DNA of 64,000 nt, from NCBI GenBank assembly GCA_019751125.1, contig JAIENU010000074.1:10464-74463 (forward strand), read 5' to 3'. Source of the stretch: Burkholderiales bacterium (lineage in GTDB: Bacteria; Pseudomonadota; Gammaproteobacteria; Burkholderiales; SG8-41). The notes under the pieces were generated by a model. That model saw only the letters and a program-made list of their open reading frames with translations, was not told the DNA's origin and ran no database searches. Positions 6,891-43,598 of the stretch are shown piece after piece. Both the position numbers and the translations under genes were made by a program. Every line of letters begins with the position of its first letter. Positions within the stretch are counted from its first letter, which is position 1.

Positions 6891-6905
6891 ATCAATAAAA
6901 ACAAT
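6891..6905 (-). repeat. AT-rich intergenic motif copy a (ATTGTTTTTATTGAT on the minus strand)
   Basis: Reads ATCAATAAAAACAAT on plus, immediately after the gabD TAA stop. One of five strong copies in the window. Confidence 0.7.
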
Positions 6906-6961
6906 GGCTTATAACGGACTCCGCCGCAGCATCCCTGCGGCGGTTCTGTTTGGAGCGGGGC

Positions 6962-7372
6962 ATGTTCAGCATCCTTGGCCTTGATCATGTCGTGCTGCGC
7001 GCCGTCAATGTGGCGCGCATGCAGCGTTTTTATTGCGAGGTGCTGGGCTGCACGCTGGAGCGTGAGCGCGAGGATCTGGGGCTGACGCAGCTTCGCGCCG
7101 GCAGCGCGCTGATTGACCTGGTTGATGTCGAGGGGGCGCTCGGCCGCAAGGGTGGCGCGGCTCCGGGACGCGAAGGCCGCAACCTGGATCACCTGTGCCT
7201 GCGCATCGAGCCCTTCGATCCCGGCGCATTGACCGCACACCTGCTGCGTCACGGCGTGGTGCCCGGCGAAATCAAGCCGCGTTTTGGTGCCGATGGGCAG
7301 GGGCCGTCGCTGTATATCAACGATCCCGAGGGTAATGTGGTCGAACTGAAGGGGCCGCCGGTCCGCAACTGA
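6962..7372 (+). CDS. VOC-family (glyoxalase/bleomycin-resistance/dioxygenase fold) protein
   Basis: LDHVVLRAVNVARMQRFYCEVLGC N-terminal VOC module and a C-terminal LYINDPEGNVVEL block. GGAG lies 6 nt before ATG 6962. Confidence 0.8.
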   Translation: MFSILGLDHVVLRAVNVARMQRFYCEVLGCTLEREREDLGLTQLRAGSALIDLVDVEGALGRKGGAAPGREGRNLDHLCLRIEPFDPGALTAHLLRHGVVPGEIKPRFGADGQGPSLYINDPEGNVVELKGPPVRN

Positions 7373-7382
7373 GCTGTGCTGC

Positions 7383-8090
7383 TCAGGCGCGGCGTTTGCG
7401 CGGTGCTGACTGACCCTGTTGCGCCGCTTTTTCCTCCACCACCTGCACTGCGACATCGCGGCGCAGCCGGGAGTTTTCCCGTGCCACCTGTTCGGCGCGA
7501 ACTTCGTCACCATCGCGGATGGCCTCGAGCAGTGCGCGCCAATACCGCGCCGACTCGACGCGGCGCTGCGCCTCGCTCAAGCCGAGGCGGGTGTAGCGCG
7601 CGGTCTGCAGCGTCAGCGACTGCAGCGTGCCGCGCAGCCAGGGATTGTCGATGCGGTCGTTCAGCGCGCGATTCAGCGCGATGGCCTTGTCCGCGTAGTC
7701 CTTGCCGGCGGCCGGATCGGCTGCCAGGCGCTCGAGTTCACTGACAGCGAGCTCCATGTCCTTGACGAGTGTTTCGCGTGCGGGATCACGCGCCGCCTGG
7801 CGCGCGCGCAGGCCGACCAGTGCCTCGCGCACTTCGTACATCTGCCGCACGTCCTCGGTGGAGAGTTCGGTGACCTGCGCGCCGCGGTAGGGCTGGATGG
7901 TGACCAGACCCGATTGCTCGAGCAGGCGCAGCGCGTCGCGTACCGGGCCGTGGCTGACGCCGAACTCGGCGGCGATCACCGCCTCGGTCAGGCGCTGTCC
8001 CGGCGCATAACTGCCGTCGATGACCCGCTCGCGCAGCACTTCAGCGATGCGGTCGGGTATTTTCTGGGTGGTAAAGGCGGGGCGGTTCAT
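7383..8090 (-). CDS. GntR-family transcriptional regulator with FCD domain
   Basis: wHTH LTEAVIAAEFGVSHGPVRDALRLLEQSGLVTIQPYRGAQV followed by an all-helical FCD-like C-terminus. Start uncertain (ATG 8090 or TTG 8111). Confidence 0.85.
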   Translation of the reverse strand: MNRPAFTTQKIPDRIAEVLRERVIDGSYAPGQRLTEAVIAAEFGVSHGPVRDALRLLEQSGLVTIQPYRGAQVTELSTEDVRQMYEVREALVGLRARQAARDPARETLVKDMELAVSELERLAADPAAGKDYADKAIALNRALNDRIDNPWLRGTLQSLTLQTARYTRLGLSEAQRRVESARYWRALLEAIRDGDEVRAEQVARENSRLRRDVAVQVVEEKAAQQGQSAPRKRRA

Positions 8091-8142
8091 CGAATGATGG
8101 TTATCAATCAATTAAACTAATCAATTAAATTCAATGGCTTAT

Positions 8143-8160
8143 CTTATCTGATCAGTTAAG
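8143..8160. promoter_or_regulatory. near-perfect 18-bp palindrome CTTATCTGATCAGTTAAG (candidate operator)
   Basis: 16 of 18 positions are self-complementary, with a perfect CTGATCAG core. It abuts the -35 box of the putative TauD promoter in the divergent GntR/TauD spacer. Confidence 0.4.
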
Positions 8161-8162
8161 GC

Positions 8163-8191
8163 TTGACAATAGATTATAAATTATTAATAAT
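8163..8191 (+). promoter_or_regulatory. putative sigma70-type promoter (TTGACA, 17 nt, AATAAT)
   Basis: Perfect -35 hexamer at 8163-8168, a 17-nt spacer, then AATAAT at 8186-8191, about 75 nt upstream of the TauD start. Confidence 0.4.
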
Positions 8192-8266
8192 TTGGTCAGC
8201 CTGCTGAGCCCTGTGGCATTACAAGGCCGGCAAGAAACCCTCCGCCATCCAAGCCCGGGAGACACC

Positions 8267-9172: not shown

Positions 9173-9194
9173 GTGGTATCCGCGGCAGCAAAAG

Positions 9195-9222
9195 AAAAAG
9201 CCCCGCAGCAGCGGGGCTTTTT
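9195..9222. terminator. bidirectional rho-independent terminator
   Basis: Hairpin AAAAAGCCCCGC-AGCA-GCGGGGCTTTTT between convergent genes. Confidence 0.8.
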
Positions 9223-9239
9223 AATTGCAGTAAAGAAAT

Positions 9240-10295
9240 TTACAGCGCGGCCACCAGATGTTGGGCGAAGGCCTGGGTGCCGAGTTTGCCGCCGAGGTCG
9301 GCGGTGCGCGTCGCCGGCGACTGCAGTGCGGCATCGATTGCGGCATCAATCGCCTTCGCCGCTTCGGCAAAGGCCGGCAGCTTGTGGCGCTGGGCCAGCC
9401 AGTCGAGCAGCATGGTTGATGACAGCAGCAGCGAGGTCGGGTTGGCCTTGTCCTGGTCCTGGATGTCGGGGGCTGAGCCGTGCTGGGCCTGCGCGCAGCA
9501 GGCGTTGTCGCCGGTCATCGTCGAGCCGGCGAGGCCGAGGCTGCCGGAAATCTCGGAGGCTTCGTCGGACAGGATGTCGCCGAACATGTTGCCGGTGACG
9601 ATGCAGTCAAACTGCGTCGGGTTGCGCACCAGCAACGCGGCCATTGCGTCGACGATTTTTTCATCGAGTTCGACGTCCGGATATTTTTTGGCGACGGCGC
9701 GCACTTCGCGCAGGAACAGGCCGTCGGACATGTGCAGCACATTGGCCTTGTGCACGGCGGTGACTTTCTTGCGGCGCTTGCGCGCCCACTCGAAGGCGAC
9801 TTCCGAAATGCGGCGGCACTGCTTCGCGGTGACCTTGCGGATGGCGATCGCCACATCCTCGGTCGGCATGAACTCGCCGCGGCCCATGAACATGTTGCGG
9901 TCGCCGTAAAACCCCTCGGTACATTCACGGAAGATCACCAGATCCACCGGCTTGCCGGTGAGGCCGACGCCCATGCGCGATTTTGCGGGGCGGATGTTGG
10001 CGAACAGGTCGAGCTGCACGCGCAGCCAGCCCGAAGGGTTGATGCCGCCTTTCTCCTTGTCCGGGTAATCGAGGTGCGACACCGGGCCGAGGATGATGCC
10101 TGGTGCCTGGCGCGCGGCTTCCTGCACCTCGACCGGCAGCGTGCTGCCCTGCGACTTCAGCGTCTTCAGGCCGATGTCGCGGATATCCCATTCCAGGCCG
10201 AGCTTGAATTTGGCGCTGGCGCGGTCGAGCACGGCCAGCGTGGCTCGGGTGATTTCGGGGCCGATGCCGTCACCGGGAAGGACGAGTAGCTTCAT
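9240..10295 (-). CDS. isocitrate/isopropylmalate dehydrogenase-family oxidoreductase (tartrate-dehydrogenase-like)
   Basis: N-terminus MKLLVLPGDGIGPEI, plus the NIRP, NMFGDILSDEAS and GSLGLAGS motifs of the beta-decarboxylating dehydrogenase family. Confidence 0.85.
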   Translation of the reverse strand: MKLLVLPGDGIGPEITRATLAVLDRASAKFKLGLEWDIRDIGLKTLKSQGSTLPVEVQEAARQAPGIILGPVSHLDYPDKEKGGINPSGWLRVQLDLFANIRPAKSRMGVGLTGKPVDLVIFRECTEGFYGDRNMFMGRGEFMPTEDVAIAIRKVTAKQCRRISEVAFEWARKRRKKVTAVHKANVLHMSDGLFLREVRAVAKKYPDVELDEKIVDAMAALLVRNPTQFDCIVTGNMFGDILSDEASEISGSLGLAGSTMTGDNACCAQAQHGSAPDIQDQDKANPTSLLLSSTMLLDWLAQRHKLPAFAEAAKAIDAAIDAALQSPATRTADLGGKLGTQAFAQHLVAAL

Positions 10296-10316
10296 TGCAA
10301 TTTCCTTATAAAAATG

Positions 10317-10330
10317 CCAATAAAAACAAT
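10317..10330 (-). repeat. AT-rich intergenic motif copy b (ATTGTTTTTATTGG on the minus strand)
   Basis: Lies between the GntR stop (10346) and the dehydrogenase start (10295), 22 nt upstream of that start. Confidence 0.6.
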
Positions 10331-10345
10331 CGGTTGTGATGAACT

Positions 10346-11281
10346 TCAGAGTTGTGCGGTGACCGTGCTGCGCGGCGTGGAGACGGCTTTGTCCTTGTCC
10401 ATGCCGGTCTTGCGTTCGCGCACCACGTCGAGGTGGCGGCGCAGGAATTCGGCTGCTTCCTGGCGGGAACCCTGTTCCAGCAACTCCAGCAGGTGCAGGT
10501 GTTCACGGCACTGGTCGGTGATGCGCTCGCGGTCGAACTTGGCGCGGTATTCGAGCAGGCGGCGCATGGCATTGACGCGGTGGATCGCATCGATCATGAA
10601 GCGGTTGTTGGAAAAACCGATGACCGTGTTGTGAAAGTCGGATCCCAATTCAAAGAGGCGGGCGCGTGACAGTCGCATCAGGCCGCCGTCCAGCAACATC
10701 TGCTGGTCCCGGCGCACGCGTTCAAGCTCACTCTTCACCAGGCGGAAGCCCGGTTCGAGCAGCGAGGCGGGTTCGAACAGCATGCGAAAGCGGTAACTCT
10801 GGGCATGTGCTTCCAGCGAGTCCGGCATCTGCACGAACATCCAGCCGTGGCCGGGCTTGCGCTCGATCCAGCCTTCCTTTTCCATCCGGTGCAACACACG
10901 CTGCAGTTCGCGCCGCGGCATGCCGTAACGGCGCATCAGCGCGGTTTCGGTGACATGTTCCTCGAGTTTGCCGGCGAGGCGGTCATCGGCAATCTGCAGA
11001 TACCGTTCCTCGGCAAGACCGGCGCCGTCAACCAGGGCGGGTCGCACACTGGCAGGCGGCAGTTTGCGCAGGAAATAACCGCGGTTCGGCTCCTGCACCA
11101 CCACGCCCATCTCCGCGAGCACGGCCAGCGCGCGGCGCACCGGTGTGCGTGACACCTTGAGTTCGTCAGCGAACTGCTGCTCGGCGAGGTGGGCGCCGAT
11201 CGCGATACCACTGCGGCGCAGATGGTCGGCCATGCGCAGCGCAAGCTGCTGGGCAAGTTCGGAAGCGTCGTTGCGGCTCAT
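10346..11281 (-). CDS. GntR-family regulator with two tandem wHTH modules plus an FCD-like domain
   Basis: First wHTH: LAEQQFADELKVSRTPVRRALAVLAEMGVVVQEPNRGYFL. Second wHTH: VTETALMRRYGMPRRELQRVLHRMEKEGWIERKPGHGWMF. A helical FCD-like C-terminus follows. Confidence 0.8.
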   Translation of the reverse strand: MSRNDASELAQQLALRMADHLRRSGIAIGAHLAEQQFADELKVSRTPVRRALAVLAEMGVVVQEPNRGYFLRKLPPASVRPALVDGAGLAEERYLQIADDRLAGKLEEHVTETALMRRYGMPRRELQRVLHRMEKEGWIERKPGHGWMFVQMPDSLEAHAQSYRFRMLFEPASLLEPGFRLVKSELERVRRDQQMLLDGGLMRLSRARLFELGSDFHNTVIGFSNNRFMIDAIHRVNAMRRLLEYRAKFDRERITDQCREHLHLLELLEQGSRQEAAEFLRRHLDVVRERKTGMDKDKAVSTPRSTVTAQL

Positions 11282-11302
11282 GGCGTGCGCAGTTCTCGGT
11301 GT

Positions 11303-12271
11303 TTATTCCGGCTTGATGTTCTGCGACTTGATCACGCCGGTCCAGCGTGTGATTTCGGCGCGGATGTGCTTGTCCAGCTCTTCCGGCGTGGTGCCGCGCG
11401 GCACGAAGCCCATGCCGGCGAAACGTTCCTTGCTGTCGGCCGACTGCACCACGCGGTTGATCGCCTGGTTGAGGCGGTCAACGATGGGGCGGGGCGTGTT
11501 TGCCGCGCTGACGATGCCGAACCAGTTGACCACCTCGAAATCGGTGACGCCGCTTTCGGAAATCGCCGGCACGCCGGGCAGCAGCGGCGTGCGTTCCGCC
11601 GCGGCAACGCCGATGACGCGGATGCGCTGCGTGCCGAGCATGGACTGCAGCGAACCCAGCGCGGCGAACATCACCGACACCTGGCCGCCGACCAGTTCGG
11701 TCAGCGAGATGTTCGCGCCCTTGTACGGGATGTGCACCATGTCGGTCTTGGTCTTGGCCTTGAAGAACTCCATCGCGAGGTGGGTGATCGCGCCGGTGCC
11801 GGATGAGCCGTAGTTGATCTGCCCGGGTTTTGATTTCGCCAGTGCGATCAGGTCGCGCGCCGAGCGCAGCGGCATCGAGGGATGCACCACCAGCACCTGC
11901 GGTGACACCGCCATCAGCGTGATCATCGAGAAGTCGCGCACCGGGTCATAGGGCGTCTTCGGCTGCAGCGCCGGATTGATTGCATTGGGTCCGGGATTGG
12001 CGAGCAGCAGCGTGTAGCCGTCGGGCTGTGATTTCGCCACCAGATCCGCACCGATCGCACCGCCGGCGCCGCCGCGGTTGTCCACCAGCACCTGCTGGCC
12101 CAGCGGTTCCACCAGGCGCTGTGCCACGACACGCGCGATGACATCGTTGGCGCCGCCGGGTGCGAAGGGCACCACGATGCGCACCGGTTTCACCGGAAAA
12201 TTCTGTGCTGCGACCGGTGCTGCGAGCAGTGCTGCGCAGGCCGCGGCGAGCGGCAGGTTGATGCGGTTCAT
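11303..12271 (-). CDS. Bug/TctC-family periplasmic solute receptor (tripartite tricarboxylate transporter SBP)
   Basis: Signal peptide MNRINLPLAAACAALLAAPVAAQ, then FPVKPVRIVVPFAPGG and the YGSSGTG, VPYKG and NWFG family blocks. GGAGGAA RBS; start trimmed to 12271. Confidence 0.9.
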   Translation of the reverse strand: MNRINLPLAAACAALLAAPVAAQNFPVKPVRIVVPFAPGGANDVIARVVAQRLVEPLGQQVLVDNRGGAGGAIGADLVAKSQPDGYTLLLANPGPNAINPALQPKTPYDPVRDFSMITLMAVSPQVLVVHPSMPLRSARDLIALAKSKPGQINYGSSGTGAITHLAMEFFKAKTKTDMVHIPYKGANISLTELVGGQVSVMFAALGSLQSMLGTQRIRVIGVAAAERTPLLPGVPAISESGVTDFEVVNWFGIVSAANTPRPIVDRLNQAINRVVQSADSKERFAGMGFVPRGTTPEELDKHIRAEITRWTGVIKSQNIKPE

Positions 12272-12315
12272 GGCTGGGTTCCTCCGGGATATGGACTGCC
12301 TGATTTTATTGCATT

Positions 12316-12336
12316 TTGTGTGTTCAAGATACACAA
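12316..12336. promoter_or_regulatory. inverted repeat TTGTGTGTTCAAGATACACAA (candidate GntR-type operator)
   Basis: TTGTGT/ACACAA arms in the divergent Bug / dehalogenase-like spacer. Half-sites resemble GntR-family TTGT..ACAA operators. Confidence 0.35.
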
Positions 12337-12386
12337 TGATGGGGCGCTTGGCAACGGCCGGCGGGCATCAGATCACGGAGGAGAGC

Positions 12387-13355
12387 ATGGCAGGATTGCA
12401 GATCATGGCGGCAGCCACGGCCGCTGATTATGCGCGTGACCCGACGCGCTGGGGCAGCGCGGAAGTGGCCGCGCATTTCCCGTGCTTCGAACATGTGGAC
12501 GTGCGCACGTCCGGCGCGGTGATCCGCCTGCGCCACGGCGGTTCCGGACCGCCGCTGCTGCTGGTCCACGGCAATCCGCAGAACCATACCTGCTGGTACA
12601 AGATCGCGGCGCAGCTGGCGAAGCGTTACCACGTGATCCTGCCCGACCTGCGCGGCTACGGCGACAGCTCGCTGCCTGATGCGGGTGACAACCACATCAA
12701 CTTCAGCTTCCGCGCGATGGCGCAGGACCTGTTGGAGATCATGGACCAGCTCGGCTACGACAAATTCTTTGTCGCCGGACATGACCGTGGCGGGCGCACC
12801 GTGCACCGCCTGTGCATGGATCATCCGCAGCGCATCCGCAAGGTGTGCCTGATGGACATCATTCCCAACCACTATGTGTGGAACAACATCACCAAGGCCT
12901 GGGCGGTCGGCACCTGGCACTGGGCCTTCATGGCGCAGCCCGAGCCTTTCCCGGAGCGGCTGATCAGCGCGGTGCCGGCGGAATACTTCATCAAGAGCCG
13001 CATGGCGATCCGCGGCGGTACCGGCCTCGGTTTCCTGACTGATGGCGCGCTCGCCGAATACATCCGCTGCTATACGCTGAAGACGATCAGCGGTTCCTGC
13101 CGTGATTACCGCGCGACGGCCACCTGCGATTTCGAGATGGACACGGCCGACAAGGACAAGAAACTGGCGATGCCGCTGATGCTGCTGTGGGGCGCACGCG
13201 GCCATTCGCCGGAGCGCGCGCAGCGTTTTGTCGAAATCTGGAAGCAGTACGCGTCAAACATCCAGATTACCGATCCGCTGGAGGCCGGGCATTACATGCA
13301 GGAGGAAATGCCTGAGCGTATCCACGACCGTTTTGTCGAGTTTTTCCGGGATTGA
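12387..13355 (+). CDS. haloacetate (fluoroacetate) dehalogenase-like alpha/beta hydrolase, paralog 1
   Basis: LLLVHGNPQNHTCW, LPDLRGYGDS, Asp-nucleophile motif GHDRGGR, WHWAF, CRDYRA and GHYMQEE. RBS GGAGGAGAG lies before ATG 12387. Confidence 0.8.
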   Translation: MAGLQIMAAATAADYARDPTRWGSAEVAAHFPCFEHVDVRTSGAVIRLRHGGSGPPLLLVHGNPQNHTCWYKIAAQLAKRYHVILPDLRGYGDSSLPDAGDNHINFSFRAMAQDLLEIMDQLGYDKFFVAGHDRGGRTVHRLCMDHPQRIRKVCLMDIIPNHYVWNNITKAWAVGTWHWAFMAQPEPFPERLISAVPAEYFIKSRMAIRGGTGLGFLTDGALAEYIRCYTLKTISGSCRDYRATATCDFEMDTADKDKKLAMPLMLLWGARGHSPERAQRFVEIWKQYASNIQITDPLEAGHYMQEEMPERIHDRFVEFFRD

Positions 13356-13373
13356 GCGGGTCGCATCTTAAGT

Positions 13374-13389
13374 AATTGTTTTTATTGAT
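13374..13389 (+). repeat. AT-rich intergenic motif copy c (AATTGTTTTTATTGAT)
   Basis: 18 nt after the paralog-1 stop and 36 nt before the paralog-2 start. The extended match AGTAATTGTTTTTATTGA..ATATTTA is shared with copy e. Confidence 0.7.
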
Positions 13390-13424
13390 AAATATTTAAC
13401 ATCCCGGAGCGGAGGAGCAAACCC

Positions 13425-15157: not shown

Positions 15158-15287
15158 GAGTGGTGATCCCGAGTGTTGCGATTGCCCACAACTTTAGCCG
15201 AGAACGGCAGGGCCGCGGTGCCGAAGTCTGCATTGAGGGCTGTGCTATCTTTTCCGGGACTTCTTAATTCTTTGATCGCCATCCGTC

Positions 15288-33194: not shown

Positions 33195-33208
33195 TTCAGG
33201 ATCAGGAC

Positions 33209-34606
33209 ATGCTCGCGCAACAACTCGCTGAACGTATCGTCGCACTGCGTGATGCCGAACATCCGGCCGCGGCATATGAGGCTTCGCGTGTCGCGGTTGA
33301 AGACACGCTGGGCTGCATGCTTGCCGGTGCGGCAGAGCCGGCGACGACCATGGTTGCCGCGACGGTTGCCGGCAGCGACGGTCCCTGCACCTTGCTCGGT
33401 ACGGGGCGCCGCACCACTCCCCTGGATGCCGCGCTGGTCAATGGCACCGCGGCACATGCCCTGGATTACGACAATGGCAGCAACAGCATGGGTGGCCATG
33501 CCTCGGCAACCATGGTGCCGGCGCTGCTCGCCGCGGCCGAGGCCTTTGGTGGCAGTGGCCGCGACCTGATGGTGGCGCATACCGTCGGCTTCGAGGTCGG
33601 CACGCGCATCGGACTCGGCGTCAACTTCCATCACTACGAAAAGGGCTGGCATCCGACTTCGACCCTGGGCACCTTCGCGGTGGTGGGGGCCTGCGCCTCG
33701 TTGCTGAAGCTGGATGCGGCACAGACTGCAACCGCACTGGCCATCGGTGCCTCGCTGGCCTCGGGCATCAAGGCCAATTTCGGCACCATGACCAAACCGA
33801 TGCATGTCGGCCACTGCGCGCGCAACGGGCTGTTCGCGGTGCTGCTTGCGCGCGAGGGCTTTACCGCGAGTGCGGCAGCCTTTGAACACAAGCAGGGTTT
33901 TTTCGAGGTTTACAACGGCGCCGGCCATTACGACGCGGCGCGCATTCTTGAGGACTGGGCCTCGCCGCTGCAGATCCTGCAGCCGGGGGCCGGATACAAA
34001 CAGTATCCCTGCTGCGCGGCGACCCATTCAGCGCTGGATGCCACGCTGGCCATCGTGCGGGGTGAGGGCGGGCGCATCGACCCGCGGCGCATAGCAAAAA
34101 TCGAAACCTGGACACCGGCGCGGCGCCTCGTGCATACCGACCGCCCTGATCCGAAAAGTAATCTTGATGCCAAGTTCAGCGTGCAGTACTGCGTCAGCCG
34201 CGCGGTGATCGATGGCCGCATCGGCATCGAGCATTTCGAAGGCGAAACCTGGCGCGATCCGGCAGTGCGCGAGCTGATGACGCGGGTGCGCTCAACGGTG
34301 CATCTGCCGGGACAGTTTCCGGCGGACAACCACTTCGGCGCTGAAGTGAAGATCACGCTCGATGACGGCCGCGTGTTGTCCGATCGCGTCGACATCCAGC
34401 TCGGCCGCACCGCGAACAATCCGATTCCGCCGGCACAGTTGCGCGGAAAATTTCTCGACTGCGCCGGCCGTGCCTTGCCGGCGGTCCGCGTCACGCAACT
34501 CGCGCAGCAGCTCGACACGCTGCAGACCTTACCCGATGCGGCCCGGCTGATGGCTGCTGCGGCTGAAGATACAGAAAATTATCAATTAAAACAAGGGGTT
34601 AAGTGA
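33209..34606 (+). CDS. MmgE/PrpD-family protein (2-methylcitrate-dehydratase-like fold)
   Basis: DTLGCMLAGAAEP, GWHPTSTLGTFA and KPMHVGHCARNG blocks of the family. Confidence 0.85.
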   Translation: MLAQQLAERIVALRDAEHPAAAYEASRVAVEDTLGCMLAGAAEPATTMVAATVAGSDGPCTLLGTGRRTTPLDAALVNGTAAHALDYDNGSNSMGGHASATMVPALLAAAEAFGGSGRDLMVAHTVGFEVGTRIGLGVNFHHYEKGWHPTSTLGTFAVVGACASLLKLDAAQTATALAIGASLASGIKANFGTMTKPMHVGHCARNGLFAVLLAREGFTASAAAFEHKQGFFEVYNGAGHYDAARILEDWASPLQILQPGAGYKQYPCCAATHSALDATLAIVRGEGGRIDPRRIAKIETWTPARRLVHTDRPDPKSNLDAKFSVQYCVSRAVIDGRIGIEHFEGETWRDPAVRELMTRVRSTVHLPGQFPADNHFGAEVKITLDDGRVLSDRVDIQLGRTANNPIPPAQLRGKFLDCAGRALPAVRVTQLAQQLDTLQTLPDAARLMAAAAEDTENYQLKQGVK

Positions 34607-35607: not shown

Positions 35608-35617
35608 GGCACTCACG

Positions 35618-36739: not shown

Positions 36740-37022
36740 AAGTAATCCACTGGCGCCGGCCGTCACGGTGGTCGTCAACGGGCGCAGCGTCGCGGTGCCG
36801 CAGGGCTGCAGCGCGGCGGCGGCGATGCTGATGCACGGCGGCGGCAGCACGCGCACCACGCCGGTCAGCGGCGAAGCGCGCGCGCCGTACTGCATGATGG
36901 GTTTGTGTTACGAATGCCTGATGGAAATCGACGGCGAACCCAACCAGCAGGGCTGTCTGGTGATCGTGCGCGAAGGCATGCACATCAATCCCCAGCTCGG
37001 CAAACCGGGAGTGAAGCCGTGA
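36720..37022 (+). CDS. (2Fe-2S)-binding small subunit (HcnA/opine-oxidase gamma-like)
   Basis: 100-aa protein with the Cys cluster PYCMMGLCYECLMEIDG. It overlaps the upstream gene by 20 nt. Confidence 0.75.
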   Translation: MFKLLPESNPLAPAVTVVVNGRSVAVPQGCSAAAAMLMHGGGSTRTTPVSGEARAPYCMMGLCYECLMEIDGEPNQQGCLVIVREGMHINPQLGKPGVKP

Positions 37023-38443: not shown

Positions 38444-38474
38444 ACTGAAACCAAACCTCAAAGTGAGCTGACTC

Positions 38475-40187
38475 ATGGCTGTCTACCGTCCCACCATCAC
38501 CGGCGAACGCCACATGATTTCCGCCGGTCATTATTCGGCCACCCATGCCGGTTTCAAGATCCTCGAGGCCGGCGGCAATGCCATCGACGCCGGTGTGGCT
38601 GCAGGCATTGCGCTGGGCATCCTGCAGACCGACCGCGTCAATTTCGCCGGTGTCGCGCCGATCATGATCTGGCTTGCCGACAGGCAGCAGGTGGTCAACA
38701 TCGACGGCCTGGGCACCTGGCCGAAGGCGGCGTCGCTGGAGCATTTCCACAAACACCACGAAGGCAAGATGCCGCCGGGCCTGCTGCGCGCGGTGATGCC
38801 GGCGGCACCGGCATCCTGGCTCGCTGCACTCGAGCGCTACGGCACGATGAGTTTCGGCGAAGTTGCGGCGGAAGCGACGCGGCTTGCGCGGGACGGTTTC
38901 GCGATGCACGAATTCATGGCCGACTACATCAAGGACAACGAGGCGGGTTACCGCCACTGGCCCTCGAGCACCGCGGTGTTCCTGCCCAAGGGCAGGCCGC
39001 CGGAAGTCGGCGAGCGTTTTATCCAGTCGGAACTTGCGGCCTCGCTGCAGTACATGATTGACGAGGAGGCGGCGCACAAGGGCAAGGGCAGGGCGGCCGG
39101 CCTGCGCGCGGCGCGTGATGCCTTCTACAAGGGCGATATCGCGCAGAAGATCGCCAGATACCATCGCGAAAACGAAGGCTGGGTCACTGCCGAAGACCTC
39201 GCCGCTTACGAAGTCAGCTTTGAAGATCCGGTACACACGCGTTTTCATGGGGTTGATCTCTATGCCTGCGGCCCGTGGTCGCAGGGGCCGGTGCTGCCGC
39301 AGACACTGAACCTGCTGTCGGGTTTTGACCTGAAGGCGATGGGCCATAACTCGCCGCAGTACGTGCACACCATCGTCGAATCCCTGAAGCTGTCCTTCGC
39401 CGACCGCCACCGTTATTACGGCGATCCGAAATTCGTCAAGGTGCCGATCGATATCCTGCTTTCGCCGGCCTATGCCGACGAGCGGCGCAAGCTGATCAAT
39501 GCCGATGCCGCCGCACCGGGCATGCCGGAGGCGGGTGATGTGATCGGCTTCGCCAAGCTGCACAATCTGCCGCCGCCGACGCCCGGCGAGCCGAATCCGC
39601 CGCCGGACACTTCTTATGTCTGTGTTGTTGACCGCCACGGCAATGCCTTCTCGGCCACGCCCAGCGACGGCTCCAGCGCGATGCCGGTCATTCCCGGCAC
39701 GGGGCTGTGCCCGTCCTCGCGCGGCTCGCAGTCGTGGACCGATCCGAAAATGCCGGCAGTGATGGCGCCGGGCAAACGGCCGCGGCTGACGCCGAATCCG
39801 GCGATGGCACTGAAGGACGGCAAGCTGCTGATGCCTTTTGGTTCGCCCGGCAACGACATCCAGCCGCAGGCGATGACCCAGGTTTTTCTCAACATCGTGG
39901 TGTTCGGCATGGAGCCGCAGGCCGCGGTCGAGGCGCCGCGCTTCGCCACCTACAGCTTCCCCAGTTCCTCGGAGCCGCACGCCTATCACCCGGGGCGGAT
40001 CAATCTCGAATCGCGTTTTGAAACAAAGACGGTTGAACAGCTCGCGAAGCTGGGCCACACCGTCGCGGCGTGGCGCGAAATCGAATGGCGCGCCGGCGCG
40101 GTGTGTGCGGTGCGTGTGAATCGCGACAACGGCCTGCTCGAAGGTGCTGCCGATCCGCGGCGGCCCTGTTATGCGATGGGGGTTTGA
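38475..40187 (+). CDS. gamma-glutamyltransferase-family Ntn hydrolase, paralog 2
   Basis: Collinear paralog of 29177..30895, with GGNAIDAGVAAG, PPDTSYVCVVDRHGNAFSATPS and FGSPGN. Confidence 0.85.
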   Translation: MAVYRPTITGERHMISAGHYSATHAGFKILEAGGNAIDAGVAAGIALGILQTDRVNFAGVAPIMIWLADRQQVVNIDGLGTWPKAASLEHFHKHHEGKMPPGLLRAVMPAAPASWLAALERYGTMSFGEVAAEATRLARDGFAMHEFMADYIKDNEAGYRHWPSSTAVFLPKGRPPEVGERFIQSELAASLQYMIDEEAAHKGKGRAAGLRAARDAFYKGDIAQKIARYHRENEGWVTAEDLAAYEVSFEDPVHTRFHGVDLYACGPWSQGPVLPQTLNLLSGFDLKAMGHNSPQYVHTIVESLKLSFADRHRYYGDPKFVKVPIDILLSPAYADERRKLINADAAAPGMPEAGDVIGFAKLHNLPPPTPGEPNPPPDTSYVCVVDRHGNAFSATPSDGSSAMPVIPGTGLCPSSRGSQSWTDPKMPAVMAPGKRPRLTPNPAMALKDGKLLMPFGSPGNDIQPQAMTQVFLNIVVFGMEPQAAVEAPRFATYSFPSSSEPHAYHPGRINLESRFETKTVEQLAKLGHTVAAWREIEWRAGAVCAVRVNRDNGLLEGAADPRRPCYAMGV

Positions 40188-40207
40188 GAAGGGGAATTGT
40201 TGTAAAT

Positions 40208-40223
40208 AATTGTTTTTATTGAA
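40208..40223 (+). repeat. AT-rich intergenic motif copy d (AATTGTTTTTATTGAA)
   Basis: 20 nt after the GGT-2 stop and 46 nt before the MFS start. The 19-nt TAATTGTTTTTATTGAATA is identical to copy e. Confidence 0.7.
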
Positions 40224-40268
40224 TAATTTATAGAGCGGCGACAAGCCGTCCGGGGGGCAAAAGCAATC

Positions 40269-41513
40269 ATGAAATTCCTGCGCATCCAGGGCATCCATCG
40301 CGCCTGGATCATTCTTGCTGCAGCCTGTGTGCTGGGTGTGGTGAGCCGCGCCGACTCGGCGTCGTTTGCCGTGCTCGTCGATCCGCTGGTTGAAAAATTC
40401 GGCTGGAAGCGCGGCGACATCGGCCTCGCCTATTCGCTGGCCTTTTTGTGCAGCATGCCGGCGATGCTGGTCTTCGGCTGGCTGGGGGATCGATACAGCG
40501 CGCGCACGCTGATGCTCGGCTCGTCGCTGATGATTTCAGTGGGCACCGTCATGCTCGGCATGATCCAGGAGCTGTGGCATCTGCATGTCATCTACGGCGT
40601 GTTTGTCGGCGCGCTGGGCAACGCGGCTTTTGTCGTGCTGCTGCCGGTGATCATCACCCGCTGGTTCAACCACAAGATGGGGCTGGCACTGGGCATCTAC
40701 TGGGCGGGGCTGGGCATGGGTCCGGTGGTGTTTGCGCTGCTGTTCCGCTGGATGATCGAGAATCGCGGCTGGGAGCCGGCATTCATGGTGTTCGGCATCG
40801 CCTTCGGTGTGGTGCTGCTGTTTTTCTCCTGGTTCATCCGATCCAGTCCAGCCGAAATGGGGTTGACGGCCTATGGCGCTGATGAGGCGGACAAGGAAAA
40901 GCAGGCCTCGGGCCCGACGGTCAGCTTGAAGTCGGTGTTTTCCAGCCGGCCGGTGTGGCTGCTGATGGGCTGCCATCATCTCGGTTGTGCGGGGCATGCG
41001 GTGATCCTTGCGCATGGCGTGTCGATGGCCACCCACCACGGCATCCCCGGCCTGCAGGCGGCGGGTGTGCTCAGCACCATCGCCGGGGTATCGATTTTCA
41101 GCCGCTTCAGTTTCTCACTGCTCACCGAGCGTTTCGGTGGTCGCACCATCCTGTCCGGCGCGATCTTCGGGCAGAGCCTGTCGGTGCTGATGCTGCTGTT
41201 CGCAAGCGAGGCCTGGCACTTCTACATCTTCGCCGTCATCTTCGGCATCTGCTACGGCGGCGAGATGGTCGGATTCCCGATCATCAACCGCCAGATGTTC
41301 GGCCCGAAGGCACCCTTGAGTTCGATTTTTTCATTCCAGATGATCGGAGGCACCACCGGCATGGCGCTCGGCGGCTGGCTGGGCGGGGCGTTGTTTGATC
41401 ATTCTGGCAACTACACGGCGGCCATTCTGGTGGCGTCGGGGATTGGCTTTTTGGCGGTGCCGTTGGCGCTTTGGTTGCCGAGGCATCGGCACAAAGCTGT
41501 GGCGCAGGTGTGA
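40269..41513 (+). CDS. MFS transporter
   Basis: About 12 hydrophobic segments, with GWLGDRYSARTLM in loop 2-3. Confidence 0.8.
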   Translation: MKFLRIQGIHRAWIILAAACVLGVVSRADSASFAVLVDPLVEKFGWKRGDIGLAYSLAFLCSMPAMLVFGWLGDRYSARTLMLGSSLMISVGTVMLGMIQELWHLHVIYGVFVGALGNAAFVVLLPVIITRWFNHKMGLALGIYWAGLGMGPVVFALLFRWMIENRGWEPAFMVFGIAFGVVLLFFSWFIRSSPAEMGLTAYGADEADKEKQASGPTVSLKSVFSSRPVWLLMGCHHLGCAGHAVILAHGVSMATHHGIPGLQAAGVLSTIAGVSIFSRFSFSLLTERFGGRTILSGAIFGQSLSVLMLLFASEAWHFYIFAVIFGICYGGEMVGFPIINRQMFGPKAPLSSIFSFQMIGGTTGMALGGWLGGALFDHSGNYTAAILVASGIGFLAVPLALWLPRHRHKAVAQV

Positions 41514-41550
41514 TGATAGTGACTGGTGATCTTATTTTTTTGAAGTGATT

Positions 41551-42837
41551 TCAGAGTTTCATGCTTTCTCGATATTGCTCTGCTGATGGCTCGTGAATCA
41601 AATCAAAAACCTTGTCGTAATTTTCTCGGATAACTTTTTCAATTTCTTTGATATCGGCCTTGAAAAACTCTTTTCTCGTGTTGACCTTGTTCACCCTTGA
41701 TTGAGTGAAATGGGCGTGAATTTTTGCTTCTAATTCTGGGGCGTTGTCTGAAAAAATCATGGCATGCAAGTCAAATTCAAAAGGTACGGATGCATCTCCA
41801 AGTTCATCAACCCGTTCTAGTGGCTCGAGCCTTCTGGTCATGCCAATTTTGTATATGTTGTGACCAAATGCCCCTATGTTCGAGACGATATAGATATAAC
41901 CCGCTTTTGCATTTTTCTCGCGGTAATCAATTTGTTTTTCTTCGCTGTCAAGAGCATTAATTTGGGAGCTAACCTCGTTTAATTTTTCTTCAATCTCTTT
42001 TTTCTCTTGCTCATCTTTGGATGCAGCCAGTTTTTGTTGAAGATTTTTAATGGCAGCAGAAAAATGCTTTCTTTCCTTTTCTATTTTTTCGCGAGCTTGC
42101 CTTATTTCTCGCTCTATTTTTTGCTGCTCTCTTAGCTCCTCCCTTGCTTTTCTTTGCTCATCTTTTTCTTCTTGTTTTTTGATCTGATATTCAAAGGCTA
42201 GTTGTAGCTCTGAAATTTTTAGATTTTTATATTGCGTGGTTACTTTGGCACTTAATATTCGTCCTAATTTTTCCAATGCTTTAAATGATTTTTCAATGCG
42301 CTCTTCAAAGTTTTCGATATTGTTAAATTTAACGTTATCGACGCAATAGTCACATTCATTGTTGAACGACCTGAGAAGAAGCCTTTTCATGTCGTTGACC
42401 ATCTTTTTTCCTTCTGCCTTGCTGCCATTAACGGTCCAATTTTCATCGGCGATAACGGCTTTACCTTCCTTGATAAGTAGTTTTTGTTCTTCTCTGATTT
42501 GGTCGAGTTTTTCTTTGTGTGATGCGCTGTTGCTGAATGGAAATTTCGGTTTATAAAGCGCGAAAGACTCGAGAAGTATTTCATCATCGAGGGAAATAAT
42601 TTGTAATTTTCTTTCGGCTATTTCTTGTTCTAGGGAATTTTTTTGCAATGCCAGTGCCTTCAAGTCCCTCTCGATTTCACTGCATTTTTTTAGGTAGATT
42701 TCTAGTTTGGCATGTACTTTTTCTACTTCATCTGCACCAATTTCCCGCATCAGATCCCTTAGTCGATTGAGATCATCAGTCAGTTTTTCGTTTTCTTTTC
42801 GAATCTCAGATACTCTAAAAATGTCGAAAATGCTCAT
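41551..42837 (-). CDS. DUF4041 + T5orf172 (MUG113/GIY-YIG-like) domain protein, candidate phage-defence nuclease
   Basis: Strongly AT-rich gene. Coiled-coil N-terminus, a DUF4041-like core (NWTVNGSKAEGKKMVNDMKRLLLRSFNNECDYCVDNVKFNNI) and a C-terminal GYIYIVSN...YKIGMTRRLEPLERVDELGD...EFFKADI T5orf172 signature. Confidence 0.8.
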   Translation of the reverse strand: MSIFDIFRVSEIRKENEKLTDDLNRLRDLMREIGADEVEKVHAKLEIYLKKCSEIERDLKALALQKNSLEQEIAERKLQIISLDDEILLESFALYKPKFPFSNSASHKEKLDQIREEQKLLIKEGKAVIADENWTVNGSKAEGKKMVNDMKRLLLRSFNNECDYCVDNVKFNNIENFEERIEKSFKALEKLGRILSAKVTTQYKNLKISELQLAFEYQIKKQEEKDEQRKAREELREQQKIEREIRQAREKIEKERKHFSAAIKNLQQKLAASKDEQEKKEIEEKLNEVSSQINALDSEEKQIDYREKNAKAGYIYIVSNIGAFGHNIYKIGMTRRLEPLERVDELGDASVPFEFDLHAMIFSDNAPELEAKIHAHFTQSRVNKVNTRKEFFKADIKEIEKVIRENYDKVFDLIHEPSAEQYRESMKL

Positions 42838-42889
42838 TTTTATATCTCTTGATCGGGTAAAGTTGACTTATTGAGAGGAGATTTTCGCT

Positions 42890-43216
42890 TTAAGCGGCTG
42901 CTGCGTGTAGCTTTACACCAAGTGCCCTAGCAACTCTTAGAACCGTCGCAAAACTCGGATTCCCATCCTCACTGAGTGCGCGGTAAAGACTTTCGCGTGA
43001 CAGGCCCGTCGCCTTGGCAACCTGTGTCATTCCTTTGGCGCGAGCTATGTCACCCAGCGCCCGCGCAATACCTGCTGCATCCTCCGGAAAATCACTAAGC
43101 CAGGCATCAAGGTAGGCAGCCATTTCCTCTGGCGTCCGGAGTTGAGCCGCGACGTCGTAGGGCAGGGTTTTGGTTTTCGCTGGTTTTTTGGCTGAAGTTC
43201 GTGTCATGTCATTCAC
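42890..43216 (-). CDS. HTH (XRE-type) addiction-module antidote protein (HigA-like antitoxin)
   Basis: 108-aa protein with AAYLDAWL..., MTQVAKATGLSRESLYRALSEDGNPSFATVLRVARALG. Overlaps the toxin stop by 4 nt. Confidence 0.85.
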   Translation of the reverse strand: MNDMTRTSAKKPAKTKTLPYDVAAQLRTPEEMAAYLDAWLSDFPEDAAGIARALGDIARAKGMTQVAKATGLSRESLYRALSEDGNPSFATVLRVARALGVKLHAAAA

Positions 43217-43506
43217 TCCTGAAAATCACGTGCCAGTTCGGTGGCGCGTTTGATGTCTCGTTCCTGCGTGGTTTTATCGCCGCCTGCCAGCAGCAGGATC
43301 AAGCGGGTTCCGCGCTGCATGTAATACACGCGATAGCCGGGACCGAAGTCGATTTTTAATTCGGATACACCGCCGGTCAGGTTGCGATGTTGGCCGGGGT
43401 TGCCGTGCACCAGCCGATCCACACGCACCTGTATCCGTGCGCGGCTCGCGGTGTCCCGCATGCCGTTGATCCACGCTCGATAGACTTCGGTCTCTTCGAC
43501 GCGCAT
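43213..43506 (-). CDS. RelE/ParE-superfamily addiction-module killer protein (HigB-like toxin)
   Basis: 97-aa protein with VSELKIDFGPGYRVYYMQRGTRLILLLAGGDKTTQERDI, typical of the killer-protein family. Toxin-first gene order. Confidence 0.85.
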   Translation of the reverse strand: MRVEETEVYRAWINGMRDTASRARIQVRVDRLVHGNPGQHRNLTGGVSELKIDFGPGYRVYYMQRGTRLILLLAGGDKTTQERDIKRATELARDFQE

Positions 43507-43514
43507 GAGCTAGT

Positions 43515-43530
43515 GTAGCCTATAGGCTAC
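43515..43530. promoter_or_regulatory. perfect 16-bp palindrome GTAGCCTATAGGCTAC (candidate TA operator)
   Basis: Fully self-complementary and located 9 nt upstream of the toxin start codon. Confidence 0.6.
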
Positions 43531-43582
43531 GTCAATAAAAGGATGGTTTGATCCTGGATGAACAGGCTATTTTTAAATAAGT

Positions 43583-43598
43583 AATTGTTTTTATTGAA
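43583..43598 (+). repeat. AT-rich intergenic motif copy e (AATTGTTTTTATTGAA)
   Basis: 4 nt from the stop of the minus-strand amidohydrolase gene, at the right edge of the AT-rich islet. Confidence 0.7.

Follow-up and report, generated by a model that had tools for sequence, protein, structure and literature searches.

Copies of the motif and their gene setting

The window analysed here is a stretch of 64,000 nucleotides from a Burkholderiales bacterium, with a GC content of 55-66% except for a low-GC island at 41.5-43.6 kb. As the original prediction had proposed, a recurrent AT-rich motif is present in its intergenic DNA: the 14-mer ATTGTTTTTATTGA occurs in four exact copies, at 6892-6905 (minus strand), 13375-13388 (plus), 40209-40222 (plus) and 43584-43597 (plus), and in a copy with one mismatch (ATTGTTTTTATTGG) at 10317-10330 (minus), and the predicted coordinates were correct within 1-2 nt. 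The strands are thus three plus and two minus. With its flanks, the element extends over about 30-37 bp and reads YAA-N3-ATTGTTTTTATTGA, with a T/A-rich tract after it. According to the gene calls, all five strong copies lie, as predicted, between co-directional genes, in spacers of 50-95 nt.

The copy at 13369..13398 (plus strand; TAAGTAATTGTTTTTATTGATAAATATTTA), which has the exact core, fits YAA-N4-TTGTTT and is in the sense orientation, is flanked by alpha/beta-hydrolase genes (12336-13355(+) and 13425-14309(+)), with its core 19 nt from the nearest stop codon and 36 nt from the next start codon. The copy at 40203..40232 (plus strand; TAAATAATTGTTTTTATTGAATAATTTATA; exact core, sense) lies between the genes for gamma-glutamyltransferase (38475-40187(+)) and an MFS transporter (40269-41513(+)), at corresponding distances of 21 and 46 nt. 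At the edge of the low-GC island, the copy at 43578..43607 (plus strand; TAAGTAATTGTTTTTATTGAATATTTATTT; exact core) is antisense to both neighbouring genes, starting 4 nt past the stop codon of an amidohydrolase gene (43602-44600(-)) and 77 nt upstream of a higB-like gene (43213-43506(-)). The copy at 6882..6911 (minus strand; TAAGCCATTGTTTTTATTGATTTATTTATT; exact core, antisense) starts 1 nt past the stop codon of a succinate-semialdehyde dehydrogenase gene (5409-6890(+)) and 44 nt from the next start codon; the terminator hairpin of this gene (6921-6943) comes after the copy and is separate from the motif. In the copy at 10307..10336 (minus strand; CAACCGATTGTTTTTATTGGCATTTTTATA; sense), CAA replaces TAA and GG replaces GA, and a clean A5 tract is found, the only one among the window copies; its neighbours are a GntR-family gene (10346-11281(-)) and an isocitrate/isopropylmalate-dehydrogenase-family gene (9240-10295(-)), with 15 nt to the nearest stop codon and 21 nt to the next start codon. 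Three strong copies are therefore sense and two antisense, both orientations having been expected. The predicted start distance of 22-60 nt holds for most copies, with 77 nt (43584) and 21 nt (10317) slightly outside. The motif had also been described as not a hairpin, in agreement with RNA folding of the spacers at 13375, 40209 and 10317, which gave z-scores of about 0; the sole strong hairpin is the above-mentioned terminator.

Weaker sites were compared with the consensus of integration host factor (IHF), the DNABII nucleoid protein that binds DNA in a sequence-specific manner in Proteobacteria. A diverged copy (48697..48726, minus strand), whose neighbouring genes are convergent (48199-48702(+) and 48755-49732(-)), has a core, CAACTATTTGATT (AATCAAATAGTTG in reverse complement), that fits WATCAANNNNTTR at every position, so that the degenerate relative suspected at about 48700 is real and has a perfect IHF core at 48714-48726. 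The relative suspected at 8120-8142 belongs to a group of ATTGA repeats, spaced by about 10 nt (8092..8153, minus strand), in a divergent promoter region, adjoined by sigma-70-like promoters at 8141-8191; within this cluster, TAAGCCATTGAAT deviates from the IHF core at one position and TAATTGATTGATA fits the relaxed pattern described below. A weaker copy (TAACCCCTTGTTTTAATTGATAATTTTCTG; 34572..34601, minus strand) shares sequence with the 3' end of gene 33209-34606(+) and is closely followed by a TctC-family gene. The core-only match TAAGGCCTTGTTA (5145..5157, plus strand; divergent region 5104-5408) is a doubtful member of the family, because the AT-rich second half is missing. A second perfect IHF core (CAAGCCATTGATTTCATTGAATATTTCAGG; 2192..2221, minus strand; core at 2209-2221) lies within the coding sequence 1775-2587(+); this stretch is conserved in L253 and L284 as well, inside homologous genes, so that it is probably retained for its coding role, and its status as a site is uncertain. 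The status of the core match TAAGCCATTGTTTTTAAAGGATTTATGGCC (63755..63784, plus strand), inside the predicted open reading frame 62028-63998(+), is likewise uncertain. The third suspected relative, 12303-12320, has just TTTTATTG in common with the motif and was rejected as a member.

With up to two mismatches allowed, ATTGTTTTTATTGA has seven matches in the window against 0.05 expected, a number reached in none of 100 shuffles. Enrichment over shuffled intergenic sequence was likewise found when every intergenic region was shuffled by itself, so that the AT-rich spacers served as their own control: ATTG-N5-ATTG was observed five times (0.32 expected) and the IHF core pattern YAANNNNTTGWTW seven times (0.41 expected), each equalled in none of 2000 shuffles. 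In the whole window, 12 matches to the relaxed pattern YAANNNNTTGWTW were counted, against 0.99 expected.

Anatomy of the motif and the IHF consensus

IHF sites are defined by four elements within about 34 bp, with AA steps 9 bp apart and an A tract of 4-6 (PMC1874591; 10.1101/382655). The reverse complement of the motif reads 5'-(A/T tract)-TCAAT-AAAA-ACAAT-NNN-TTA-3', and all four canonical elements are present in it: the A/T-rich tract; two AA steps 9 bp apart, namely both CAA of the ATTG-N5-ATTG repeat; the WATCAA hexamer as AAACAA, with one mismatch; and TTR (TTA or TTG), four bases after WATCAA. The motif had been claimed not to fit the consensus of IHF; an alignment is obtained when the 6 nt upstream (TAAGNN) are added, and the match was missed because only the 14-nt core had been tried, the TTR being in the flank (TAAG/CAAC) and WATCAA having one mismatch. 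All five window copies match YAA-N4-TTG-T-T-W. When 22 distinct copies were collected with the 14-mer core alone, so that the flank was unbiased, YAA stood exactly at -6 to -4 in 20 of them, and the three bases between YAA and the core varied. Among 67 copies from GC-rich genomes, conservation is limited to about -9 to +28 (about 37 bp), which is as wide as a footprint of IHF. The motif also aligns with the lambda H' site AAAAAAGCATTGCTTATCAATTTGTTG, parts of which were confirmed in the literature; the complete 35-mer and its register, base by base, are those of PDB 1IHF. The two sites agree in the register of the A tract, of both kink steps, of the core and of TTR.

The fit has deviations. 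In four of the five window copies the A tract is broken (AAATAAA, AAATA), against a clean run of 4-6 A, and the main window version differs from WATCAA at the T (AAACAA). TTGATT copies, which have the perfect core, occur in related lineages (L264, L286, L288); L293 also has TTGATT but differs elsewhere in the 14-mer. Like the window sites at 48714-48726 and 2209-2221, these variant copies shift toward the IHF consensus. The copies of the family vary less than the classical consensus would allow, TTTTA between the kinks being fixed, and this could reflect either an IHF optimum narrower than WATCAR-N4-TTR, or shared descent, or a different protein reading the sequence.

Occurrence in other genomes and in viral contigs

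The 20-mer was found in at least 111 reference-genome stretches, with 100 distinct flank contexts among the matches listed. About half of the records listed are Burkholderiales or Betaproteobacteria MAGs, several with two or three copies; a few matches are in MAGs of Bacteroidota and Planctomycetota, phyla without established classical heterodimeric IHF. No strict orientation bias was found among the 54 intergenic copies with both flanking genes called (19 stop/start, 13 start/stop, 9 convergent and 13 divergent). In four stretches (L149, L218, L210, L168), the motif is followed, always in the same orientation, by a -24/-12 sigma-54 promoter whose start is 30-39 nt downstream; these are four of the ten sigma-54-like matches in 1.63 Mb, and gcvH, whose operon in Pseudomonas depends on sigma-54/GcsR (PMC4894688), follows two of the four. 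From this spacing, the motif occupies about -58 to -39, near the interval from -44 to -69 in which IHF sites were tested (PMC2709558). The 3' ends of tRNA genes are close to the motif in L196 (5 nt) and in L192 (18 nt), and tRNA-like 3' ends, as read by eye, are next to it in several viral contigs. Many viral copies have iterons on either side, and some adjoin terminase genes. Positions just upstream of sigma-54 promoters, next to tRNA 3' ends and between iterons are classic for IHF, and the 20-mer occurs at all three. Conservation in close relatives was seen at the site upstream of the dehydrogenase gene (10307..10336), which is retained in four contigs (L234-L237) whose dehydrogenase orthologs have 93-96% amino-acid identity; the orthologous site has point changes and a 2-nt indel, with the IHF features mostly kept. 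A BLAST search of E. coli genomes gave no equivalent copy linkable to experimentally mapped IHF sites.

Exact matches of 20-mer variants were counted in IMG/VR viral contigs. The perfect-core version TAAGYMATTGATTTTATTGA was found in at least 120 stretches (72 distinct flank contexts among the matches listed) and the window version in 65 (31 distinct flank contexts), whereas a change of the TTR centre (TAA to TTA) left 2 stretches, a core G to A change left 7, and two scrambles of unchanged composition had none each. The TTR-centre change is reported to reduce IHF affinity more than 100-fold (10.1101/382655). The exact-match counts track the known sequence requirements of IHF. Note that a TAAG to TAAT change also reduced the viral matches from 65 to 2, though the IHF consensus leaves this position free.

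Weighing of the explanations

On the anatomy, over-representation, indifference to orientation, retention at one orthologous site and count pattern described above, each copy is quite probably a high-affinity site of about 30-37 bp at which IHF binds and bends the DNA. IHF is named as the binding protein from consensus and context, and the recurring motif is most likely a well-known kind of DNA-bending element, not a new kind. A nucleoid-associated protein site had been among the original proposals; the kind is favoured by the evidence, but IHF, the best-fitting candidate, had been ruled out. That a different abundant DNA-binding protein is responsible, with the resemblance to the IHF consensus arising by chance, is unlikely, though a direct repeat with 9-bp spacing speaks for it, as does constraint beyond WATCAR-N4-TTR, with an invariant T run and an invariant G following TAA. 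An Lrp/AsnC-type regulator (about 11 of 15 positions agree with the Lrp consensus in a hand alignment), an H-NS-like silencer (the 13375 copy includes TTGATAAATA, similar to TCGATAAATT, the H-NS nucleation motif), a response regulator reading ATTG(A)-N4/5-ATTGA and a lineage-specific factor are candidates. The 20-mer is, however, spread over alpha-, beta-, gamma- and deltaproteobacteria and, among phages, over more than 100 unrelated contexts, which argues for a universally conserved host factor and not a lineage-specific regulator; the sigma-54, tRNA-adjacent and inter-iteron positions are classic for IHF; and IHF-relevant substitutions deplete the 20-mer, the perfect-IHF version being commonest. 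The element has neither the G-N13-C pattern of Fis nor a palindrome like those of CRP, FNR or ArgR.

A miniature mobile element, as had been suggested, is an improbable source of the copies, whether as its footprints or as its solo ends, and so is a cassette of about 35 bp spread by some copy mechanism, the likeness to IHF sites being secondary. Conservation stops sharply near -9 and +28, neither terminal inverted repeats nor target-site duplications were seen around window or MAG copies, and no transposase was seen beside the window copies, against which stand the identical 14-mer in four copies within 64 kb, some copies that fill the whole spacer with both neighbours' stop codons within the motif, the window copy at the edge of the island with its toxin-antitoxin and T5orf172 genes, and a Parabeggiatoa MAG in which the 20-mer is within a longer repeated unit flanked by inverted repeats (L154, L161, L164, L195). 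IHF sites are known from repeat elements, both from Correia elements (PMC2649163) and from further small mobile sequences (PMC2229807). In the 22-copy set, the positions free in the IHF consensus differ between copies and the consensus positions are constant, which points to functional selection, not recent copying, and the orthologous 10307..10336 site drifts like ordinary inherited sequence. An element acting in RNA or transcription (a compact promoter with an extended -10 TGnTATTTT and an AT-rich UP element, an mRNA processing or stability element as originally suggested, or a terminator) would suit the co-directional setting of all five window copies and the many MAG copies that end in TTGATATTTTTA, a string similar to TGn with a -10 hexamer, and that have a start codon 16-54 nt further on. 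We regard it as about as improbable as mobile footprints: the motif is found in either orientation and in each of the four intergenic configurations, including convergent and divergent spacers, the distance from core to TTTA tract differs between copies, the promoter scan gave no consistent sigma-70 site at the motif, no terminator lies inside it, RNA structure does not exceed that of shuffled controls, no Rfam family matches, and in several copies the Shine-Dalgarno sequence comes so soon after the motif that no leader would be left. A genome-wide signal of the USS/DUS, Chi or KOPS type, such as a DNA uptake sequence or a mark for strand or segregation, is the least credible of all. The motif is, as such a signal would be, a short, over-represented and exactly conserved oligomer, but uptake sequences and Chi/KOPS are mostly within genes and far denser, whereas all five strong copies are intergenic; there is no strand bias (three plus, two minus); and the string is common to phages and many unrelated phyla, uptake signals being lineage-specific.

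Under binding by IHF, the A/T-rich tract, with its narrow minor groove, would be clamped by one flank of the dimer and TTR by the opposite flank, and two proline-tipped arms would intercalate at the AA/TT steps and kink the DNA. The spacer would be folded into a U-turn of about 160 degrees, and the site would therefore act at the DNA level in either orientation. Against this reading, no role is evident for a sharp bend within 50-nt spacers between co-directional metabolic genes. In this compact GC-rich genome, only intergenic spacers would tolerate AT-rich sites of this kind. We think that the copies are constitutive IHF landing pads, which in some spacers, such as the 8.1 kb divergent promoter region and the 10.3 kb spacer upstream of the dehydrogenase gene, probably shape local promoter or terminator architecture, and in other spacers may be sites of nucleoid architecture only.

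Copies of the element in the window

The core of the element, ATTGTTTTTATTGA, was found by search of the window to be exact at 6892-6905 (minus strand) and at 13375-13388, 40209-40222 and 43584-43597 (plus strand), and a fifth copy, at 10317-10330 (minus strand), has one mismatch. Gene calling was performed with a codon-usage model trained on the long ORFs of the window. All five of these strong copies, named below by their core start, were intergenic (5 per 64 kb, approximately one per 13 kb), and the spacers hosting them were 50-95 nt long with co-directional genes on either side; three copies were in the sense and two in the antisense orientation. Since the core matches, the gene calls and the spacer placement agree, the original prediction of five copies lying in short co-directional spacers in both orientations was an accurate description. 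Enrichment over shuffled intergenic sequence, proposed there as a genome-wide check, also holds within the window: ATTG-N5-ATTG was observed 5 times in its intergenic DNA versus 0.32 expected when every spacer was shuffled separately, and none of the 2,000 shuffles reached 5. With up to two mismatches allowed, the core had 7 matches in the window versus 0.05 expected from dinucleotide-preserving shuffles. The GC content of the window was 55-66%, except for the low-GC stretch at 41.5-43.6 kb.

In the aligned copies, conservation reached 6 nt upstream of the core (TAAGNN, or CAACCG in one copy) and ran downstream into a T/A-rich tract ending in TTTA. The information content of 67 copies from GC-rich loci was above background only from approximately -9 to +28 relative to TAAG (about 37 bp). 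No terminal inverted repeats were present around the copies and the flanks were unrelated between copies, which, together with the 37-bp limit, indicates that the site is short and complete in itself and does not belong to a larger repeat. The 36-mer form of the element is TCTATAAGTAATTGTTTTTATTGATATTTTTATAAC, and its reverse complement reads TAAAAATA-TCAAT-AAAA-ACAAT-KAC-TTA. To check whether this bipartite structure came from the search pattern, we used 22 distinct copies gathered from GC-rich DNA via the 14-mer core alone: YAA was present exactly at -6 to -4 in 20 of them, the three bases between YAA and the core varied (gta, ata, ccg, gcc, cca, cta, acg and others), and the base after TAA was G, C or A, never T. 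Across the family, this base and the T run between the two predicted kink positions (see below) were constrained.

Matches to the window proteins were confined to short metagenome contigs; the closest reference contig, L128 from a Burkholderiales MAG, showed approximately 82% nucleotide identity over the best-matching genes (window 44.6-46.8 kb). With the TctC/Bug-family receptor and catabolic enzyme genes described below, these matches point to an uncultured Burkholderiales-like betaproteobacterium as the source of the window. Ten further copies were found in about 0.5 Mb of 8-kb loci from related MAGs. For the dehydrogenase-family protein beside copy 10317, the metagenome search returned 80 loci. 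The element was present at the same place in four contigs, in which the ortholog was 93-96% identical and the GntR-family neighbour was kept; point changes and a 2-nt indel had altered the orthologous site, in which the YAA, TTG and T-tract features were for the most part retained (TAACCAATTGTTTTTATTGATTTTTTA, TAAGTTATTGTTTTCATTTATATTTTTTA and TAAGCCTTTGTTTTTTGATATTTTTA), with CTG in place of TTG in one of the contigs (L234). Where the orthologs were 86% identical or less, the neighbouring genes were different and the element was absent. Conservation in related genomes, another check proposed earlier, was thus seen in the four close contigs and absent at greater distance, so that the element is inherited and maintained over short distances and not deeply conserved at the locus. 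L128 carries the motif at a non-orthologous place, and could not be used for this comparison because its gene content differs there.

Correspondence with the IHF site

The canonical IHF site covers about 34 bp and contains the hexamer WATCAR, TTR four bases 3' of it, and two AA steps 9 bp apart at which prolines intercalate, to which the strongest sites add an A tract of 4-6 within the other half-site (PMC1874591; 10.1101/382655). When the lambda H' site AAAAAAGCATTGCTTATCAATTTGTTG was aligned with the element, the hexamer C, the TTR, both kink steps and the A tract were in register, and the sole departure was AAACAA in place of WATCAA. The full H' 35-mer and the register of the alignment are taken here to be those of PDB 1IHF. 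Parts of the H' string were confirmed from the literature.

The hexamer is AAACAA in the five strong copies, a 5/6 match to WATCAR with A where T is expected. The perfect hexamer AATCAA was found in the window at 48714-48726 (AATCAAATAGTTG) and 2209-2221 (AATCAATGGCTTG), both of which had looked like degenerate relatives, and at four related-lineage loci (L264, L286, L288 and L293); in these other lineages, covered by 748 kb of metagenome contigs with orthologs of a window gene, the perfect hexamer, read as TTGATT, stood in the same framework. TTR lies exactly 4 nt 3' of the hexamer, as TTA in four strong copies and TTG in one; copy 10317 has CAA, the other base allowed by TTR. All five fit YAA-N4-TTG-T-T-W. 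AA/TT steps stand 9 bp apart at the kink positions, since ATTG-N5-ATTG gives TT steps at this distance in every copy, one of the two kink steps being the AA of the hexamer. As for the A tract, defined as 4-6 A or an A/T-rich segment approximately 12-17 bp 5' of the hexamer C, an A/T-rich segment was always at the right distance (81-100% A/T at positions +20 to +26 in the 67 copies), with a clean A5 run in copy 10317 and most MAG copies (TATTTTTA) and interrupted runs in the other four window copies. The extent of about 34-35 bp agrees, with conservation at the background level outside -9 to +28. The relaxed pattern YAANNNNTTGWTW had 12 matches in the window versus 0.99 expected, or 7 versus 0.41 in intergenic DNA only.

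The original prediction had found no alignment to the IHF consensus. This does not stand for the element with its flanks, which largely fits that consensus; IHF was dismissed because the 14-mer alone was tested. By these sequence criteria, the copies probably belong to the canonical IHF-site class and are predicted sites of binding and bending. They resemble sites of the lambda attP H' type in the length of about 34 bp, in the same four elements in register and in independence of orientation, and differ from them in the window hexamer AAACAA and in the A tract broken in four of the five strong copies. They also differ far less from one another than the IHF sites of E. coli do, with the inter-element bases and the G beside TAA fixed as well.

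Exact matches of variants of the 20-mer, the string spanning flank and core, were counted in 2.9 million viral contigs. The perfect-core version TAAGYMATTGATTTTATTGA was the commonest (at least 120 stretches; 72 distinct flank contexts among the matches listed), and the window version was found in 65 stretches (31 distinct flank contexts). Changing the centre of TTR (TAA to TTA) left 2 stretches, changing the core G to A (the C of WATCAA) left 7 in spite of the higher A+T content of this version, and two scrambles of the same composition gave 0 each. Substitution at the TTR centre reportedly lowers IHF affinity more than 100-fold (10.1101/382655). String abundance, as judged from the TTR-centre, core G-to-A and scrambled versions, thus tracks the sequence requirements of IHF. 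TAAT in place of TAAG reduced the matches from 65 to 2, so that the supposedly free position after TAA is not free, in agreement with the G, C or A but never T found there among the core-found copies. The 14-mer alone gave chance matches in AT-rich viral contigs of phages, with YAA in only 15 of 112 flanks among the matches listed. At least 100 unrelated contexts in phages, mobile elements and chromosomes contain the exact 20-mer. This recurrence and the losses on changing IHF-critical bases suggest that IHF prefers a narrower site than the textbook consensus describes, a finding that could improve how att sites, sigma-54 promoters and origins are annotated. The uniformity of the family exceeds what that consensus requires, possibly owing to a narrower true optimum of IHF, common descent or another reader protein.

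Alternative readings and proposed role

Among 54 intergenic copies with both neighbours called, 19 were in the stop/start, 13 in the start/stop, 9 in the convergent and 13 in the divergent configuration, and the occupation of all four argues against a strand-specific role. Scans for a sigma-70 promoter (-35/-10 hexamers at 16-18 nt spacing), an extended -10 promoter and an intrinsic terminator (GC-rich hairpin followed by a T run) showed no consistent site within the motif, which occurs in both orientations. A structured RNA is disfavoured by folding z-scores of about 0 for the spacers of copies 13375, 40209 and 10317, while the terminator hairpin at 6921-6943 is unrelated to the motif, and Rfam reported no family for the element, only an unrelated glycine riboswitch in the window. 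A DNA uptake sequence (USS/DUS) or other strand-biased signal accords poorly with strong copies that are intergenic only, at about one per 13 kb, and with the same string occurring across phyla and in phages. Compared by hand, none of Fis, CRP/FNR, ArgR, Fur, the PhoP/ArcA direct-repeat boxes, dif, Ter and attC fits.

Repeat families that carry IHF sites come closer. The IHF-recruiting REP/BIME of E. coli, the RIP/RIB class, are likewise many-copy extragenic repeats with an IHF site, here predicted, after the 3' ends of genes; their site lies between GC-rich palindromic REP units, whereas the present element is a bare site with no inverted repeat or hairpin flanking the copies, the 6921-6943 hairpin being a single terminator beside one copy only. 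REP sequences recruit IHF (PMC3479197), and IHF binding with effects on adjacent genes is also possible for the Correia repeat-enclosed elements (CREE) of Neisseria and for further repeats of MITE-like type (PMC2649163; PMC2229807). CREE are, like the present element with its predicted IHF site, betaproteobacterial intergenic repeats, but they are 100-150 bp long, are bounded by terminal inverted repeats, show a TA target duplication and give rise to promoters and to RNase III sites; none of these features was seen in the element of about 35 bp. The conserved length of about 37 bp, the lack of terminal inverted repeats and target duplications around the copies, and the variation of consensus-free positions between copies count against a MITE or Correia-type mobile element.

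We thus prefer the IHF site, a class already known, and the element reveals no new kind of system. In a compact genome of 63% GC, such AT-rich sites would be tolerated in the spacers only, and the predicted U-turn would fall within 50-nt spacers between co-directional catabolic genes. Some copies may help to shape promoters or terminators locally, and others may serve nucleoid organisation only. If the IHF reading is right, a compact genome can retain near-identical IHF sites in dozens of its short spacers, and the element provides a ready-made and very specific IHF-site predictor for GC-rich Burkholderiales MAGs. A further-reaching proposal, which we regard as rather unlikely, is that the motif is a pan-bacterial IHF/DNABII "super-consensus" (TAAG-(T/C)(A/C)-ATTG-(A/T)-TTTTATTGA followed by a T tract), far tighter than WATCAR-N4-TTR, adopted by phages and amplified in a Burkholderiales lineage, the copies being amplified or homogenised into short intergenic spacers. 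It would imply that over 100 phages and mobile elements, unrelated to one another, adopted the string convergently at their att sites, in iteron arrays or at genome ends, that bare copies, numbering dozens to hundreds, fill the spacers of uncultured, probably freshwater, Burkholderiales, and that there is either a genome-wide architectural role (domain boundaries, transcription-unit punctuation) or an undescribed way of copying 35-bp protein-binding sites.

Occurrence elsewhere and neighbouring features

Among genomes represented by one reference per species, TAAGYMATTGTTTTTATTGA was found in at least 111 stretches (100 distinct flank contexts among the matches listed). About half of the listed records were MAGs of Burkholderiales or of Betaproteobacteria, and several of these had two or three matches; the rest were distributed among alpha-, gamma- and deltaproteobacteria and a small number of other phyla. 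Classical IHF locations are att sites, origins, cos/pac regions and enhancer-dependent promoters, and the 20-mer likewise occurs at sigma-54 promoters, att-like tRNA junctions, iterons and phage genome ends. As at the enhancer/sigma-54 IHF sites of nifH, Pu and glnHp2, the identical 20-mer lies upstream of a -24/-12 promoter, which starts 30-39 nt downstream in constant orientation, at four loci of other Proteobacteria (4 of the 10 sigma-54-like matches in 1.63 Mb scanned); unlike these, the window copies have no adjoining sigma-54 promoter. This spacing puts the 20-mer at approximately -58 to -39, close to the IHF-site range tested in PMC2709558. Two of the four loci have gcvH downstream, and the gcvH operon is sigma-54/GcsR-dependent in Pseudomonas (PMC4894688). 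At loci L196 and L192, the distance between the motif and a tRNA 3' end is 5 and 18 nt, respectively, and in several viral contigs the motif borders on tRNA-like 3' ends recognised by eye; many viral contigs have iteron arrays on both sides of it, and some viral copies are beside terminase genes or at contig ends.

BLAST with 32-36-nt consensus queries gave short AT-rich partial or unannotated intergenic matches in plasmids, E. coli genomes and GenBank phages, among which no experimentally mapped IHF site matching the queries was found; the matches in Achromobacter phage ehaak_LB5 and Pseudomonas phage PaMx28 had no useful annotation. The searchable literature held nothing relevant for the exact motif strings. 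Table 2 of PMC6907758 gives WATCAANNNNTTR under H-NS and TCGATAAATT under IHF, and the two motifs appear to be swapped there.

Other arrangements of the motif were seen. In viral contigs L061 (3843-3927), L325 (5907-5991) and L345, two 20-mers stand in tandem on one strand at a distance of 65 nt, and similar repeats of about 45 nt follow both of them. At L139 (about 1992-2070) and L189 (about 1284-1350), the motif or a close variant forms inverted pairs with approximately 27-30 nt between the partners; one of these loci belongs to a Betaproteobacteria MAG, the other to a Balneolaceae MAG. In four contigs of a Candidatus Parabeggiatoa MAG (L154, L161, L164 and L195), the 20-mer is inside a repeated unit of at least about 130 nt with inverted repeats flanking the site (ggggtggggtc ... 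gggtaccccaccc), which from its sequence looks like a MITE-like element carrying an IHF-type site.

In the window, a low-GC island (41551-43506, minus strand; 48-55% GC versus about 63%) lies between MFS transporter and amidohydrolase genes, and encodes a DUF4041/T5orf172 protein (41551-42837), a HigA-type antitoxin (42890-43216) and a HigB-like toxin (43213-43506), all on the minus strand. The motif copy at 43578-43607 directly adjoins this island, which may be an insertion beside a predicted IHF site. An inverted partial copy, TCAATAAAAG, is found at 43531-43540 in the higBA upstream region, about 50 nt from copy 43584, with which it pairs in the predicted RNA fold (spacer z = -3.4); it might serve as a second half-site or belong to the toxin-antitoxin operator. 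Another segment of lower GC (0.545), at 56542-57990, may also be acquired; the codon-usage caller finds no gene there, and the mechanical ORF list gives 56552-57307 and 57304-57783 (both plus strand). The glycine riboswitch aptamer (RF00504; 16119-16215, plus strand; 58.2 bits versus a gathering score of 32) is upstream of a gene at approximately 16395/16503-17660. Three TctC/Bug-family (PF03401) periplasmic receptor genes are present in the 64 kb, at 11303-12271 (minus), 34654-35607 (plus) and 48755-49732 (minus), together with catabolic enzyme genes; multiple receptors of this kind are typical of Burkholderiales with expanded tripartite tricarboxylate transporter receptor families. Strong back-to-back sigma-70-like promoters lie in the divergent region at 8141-8191 (TTGACA-17-AATAAT on the plus strand, 11/12; TTGTCA-17-TAAGAT on the minus strand), immediately beside a cluster of ATTGA repeats at 8092-8153.
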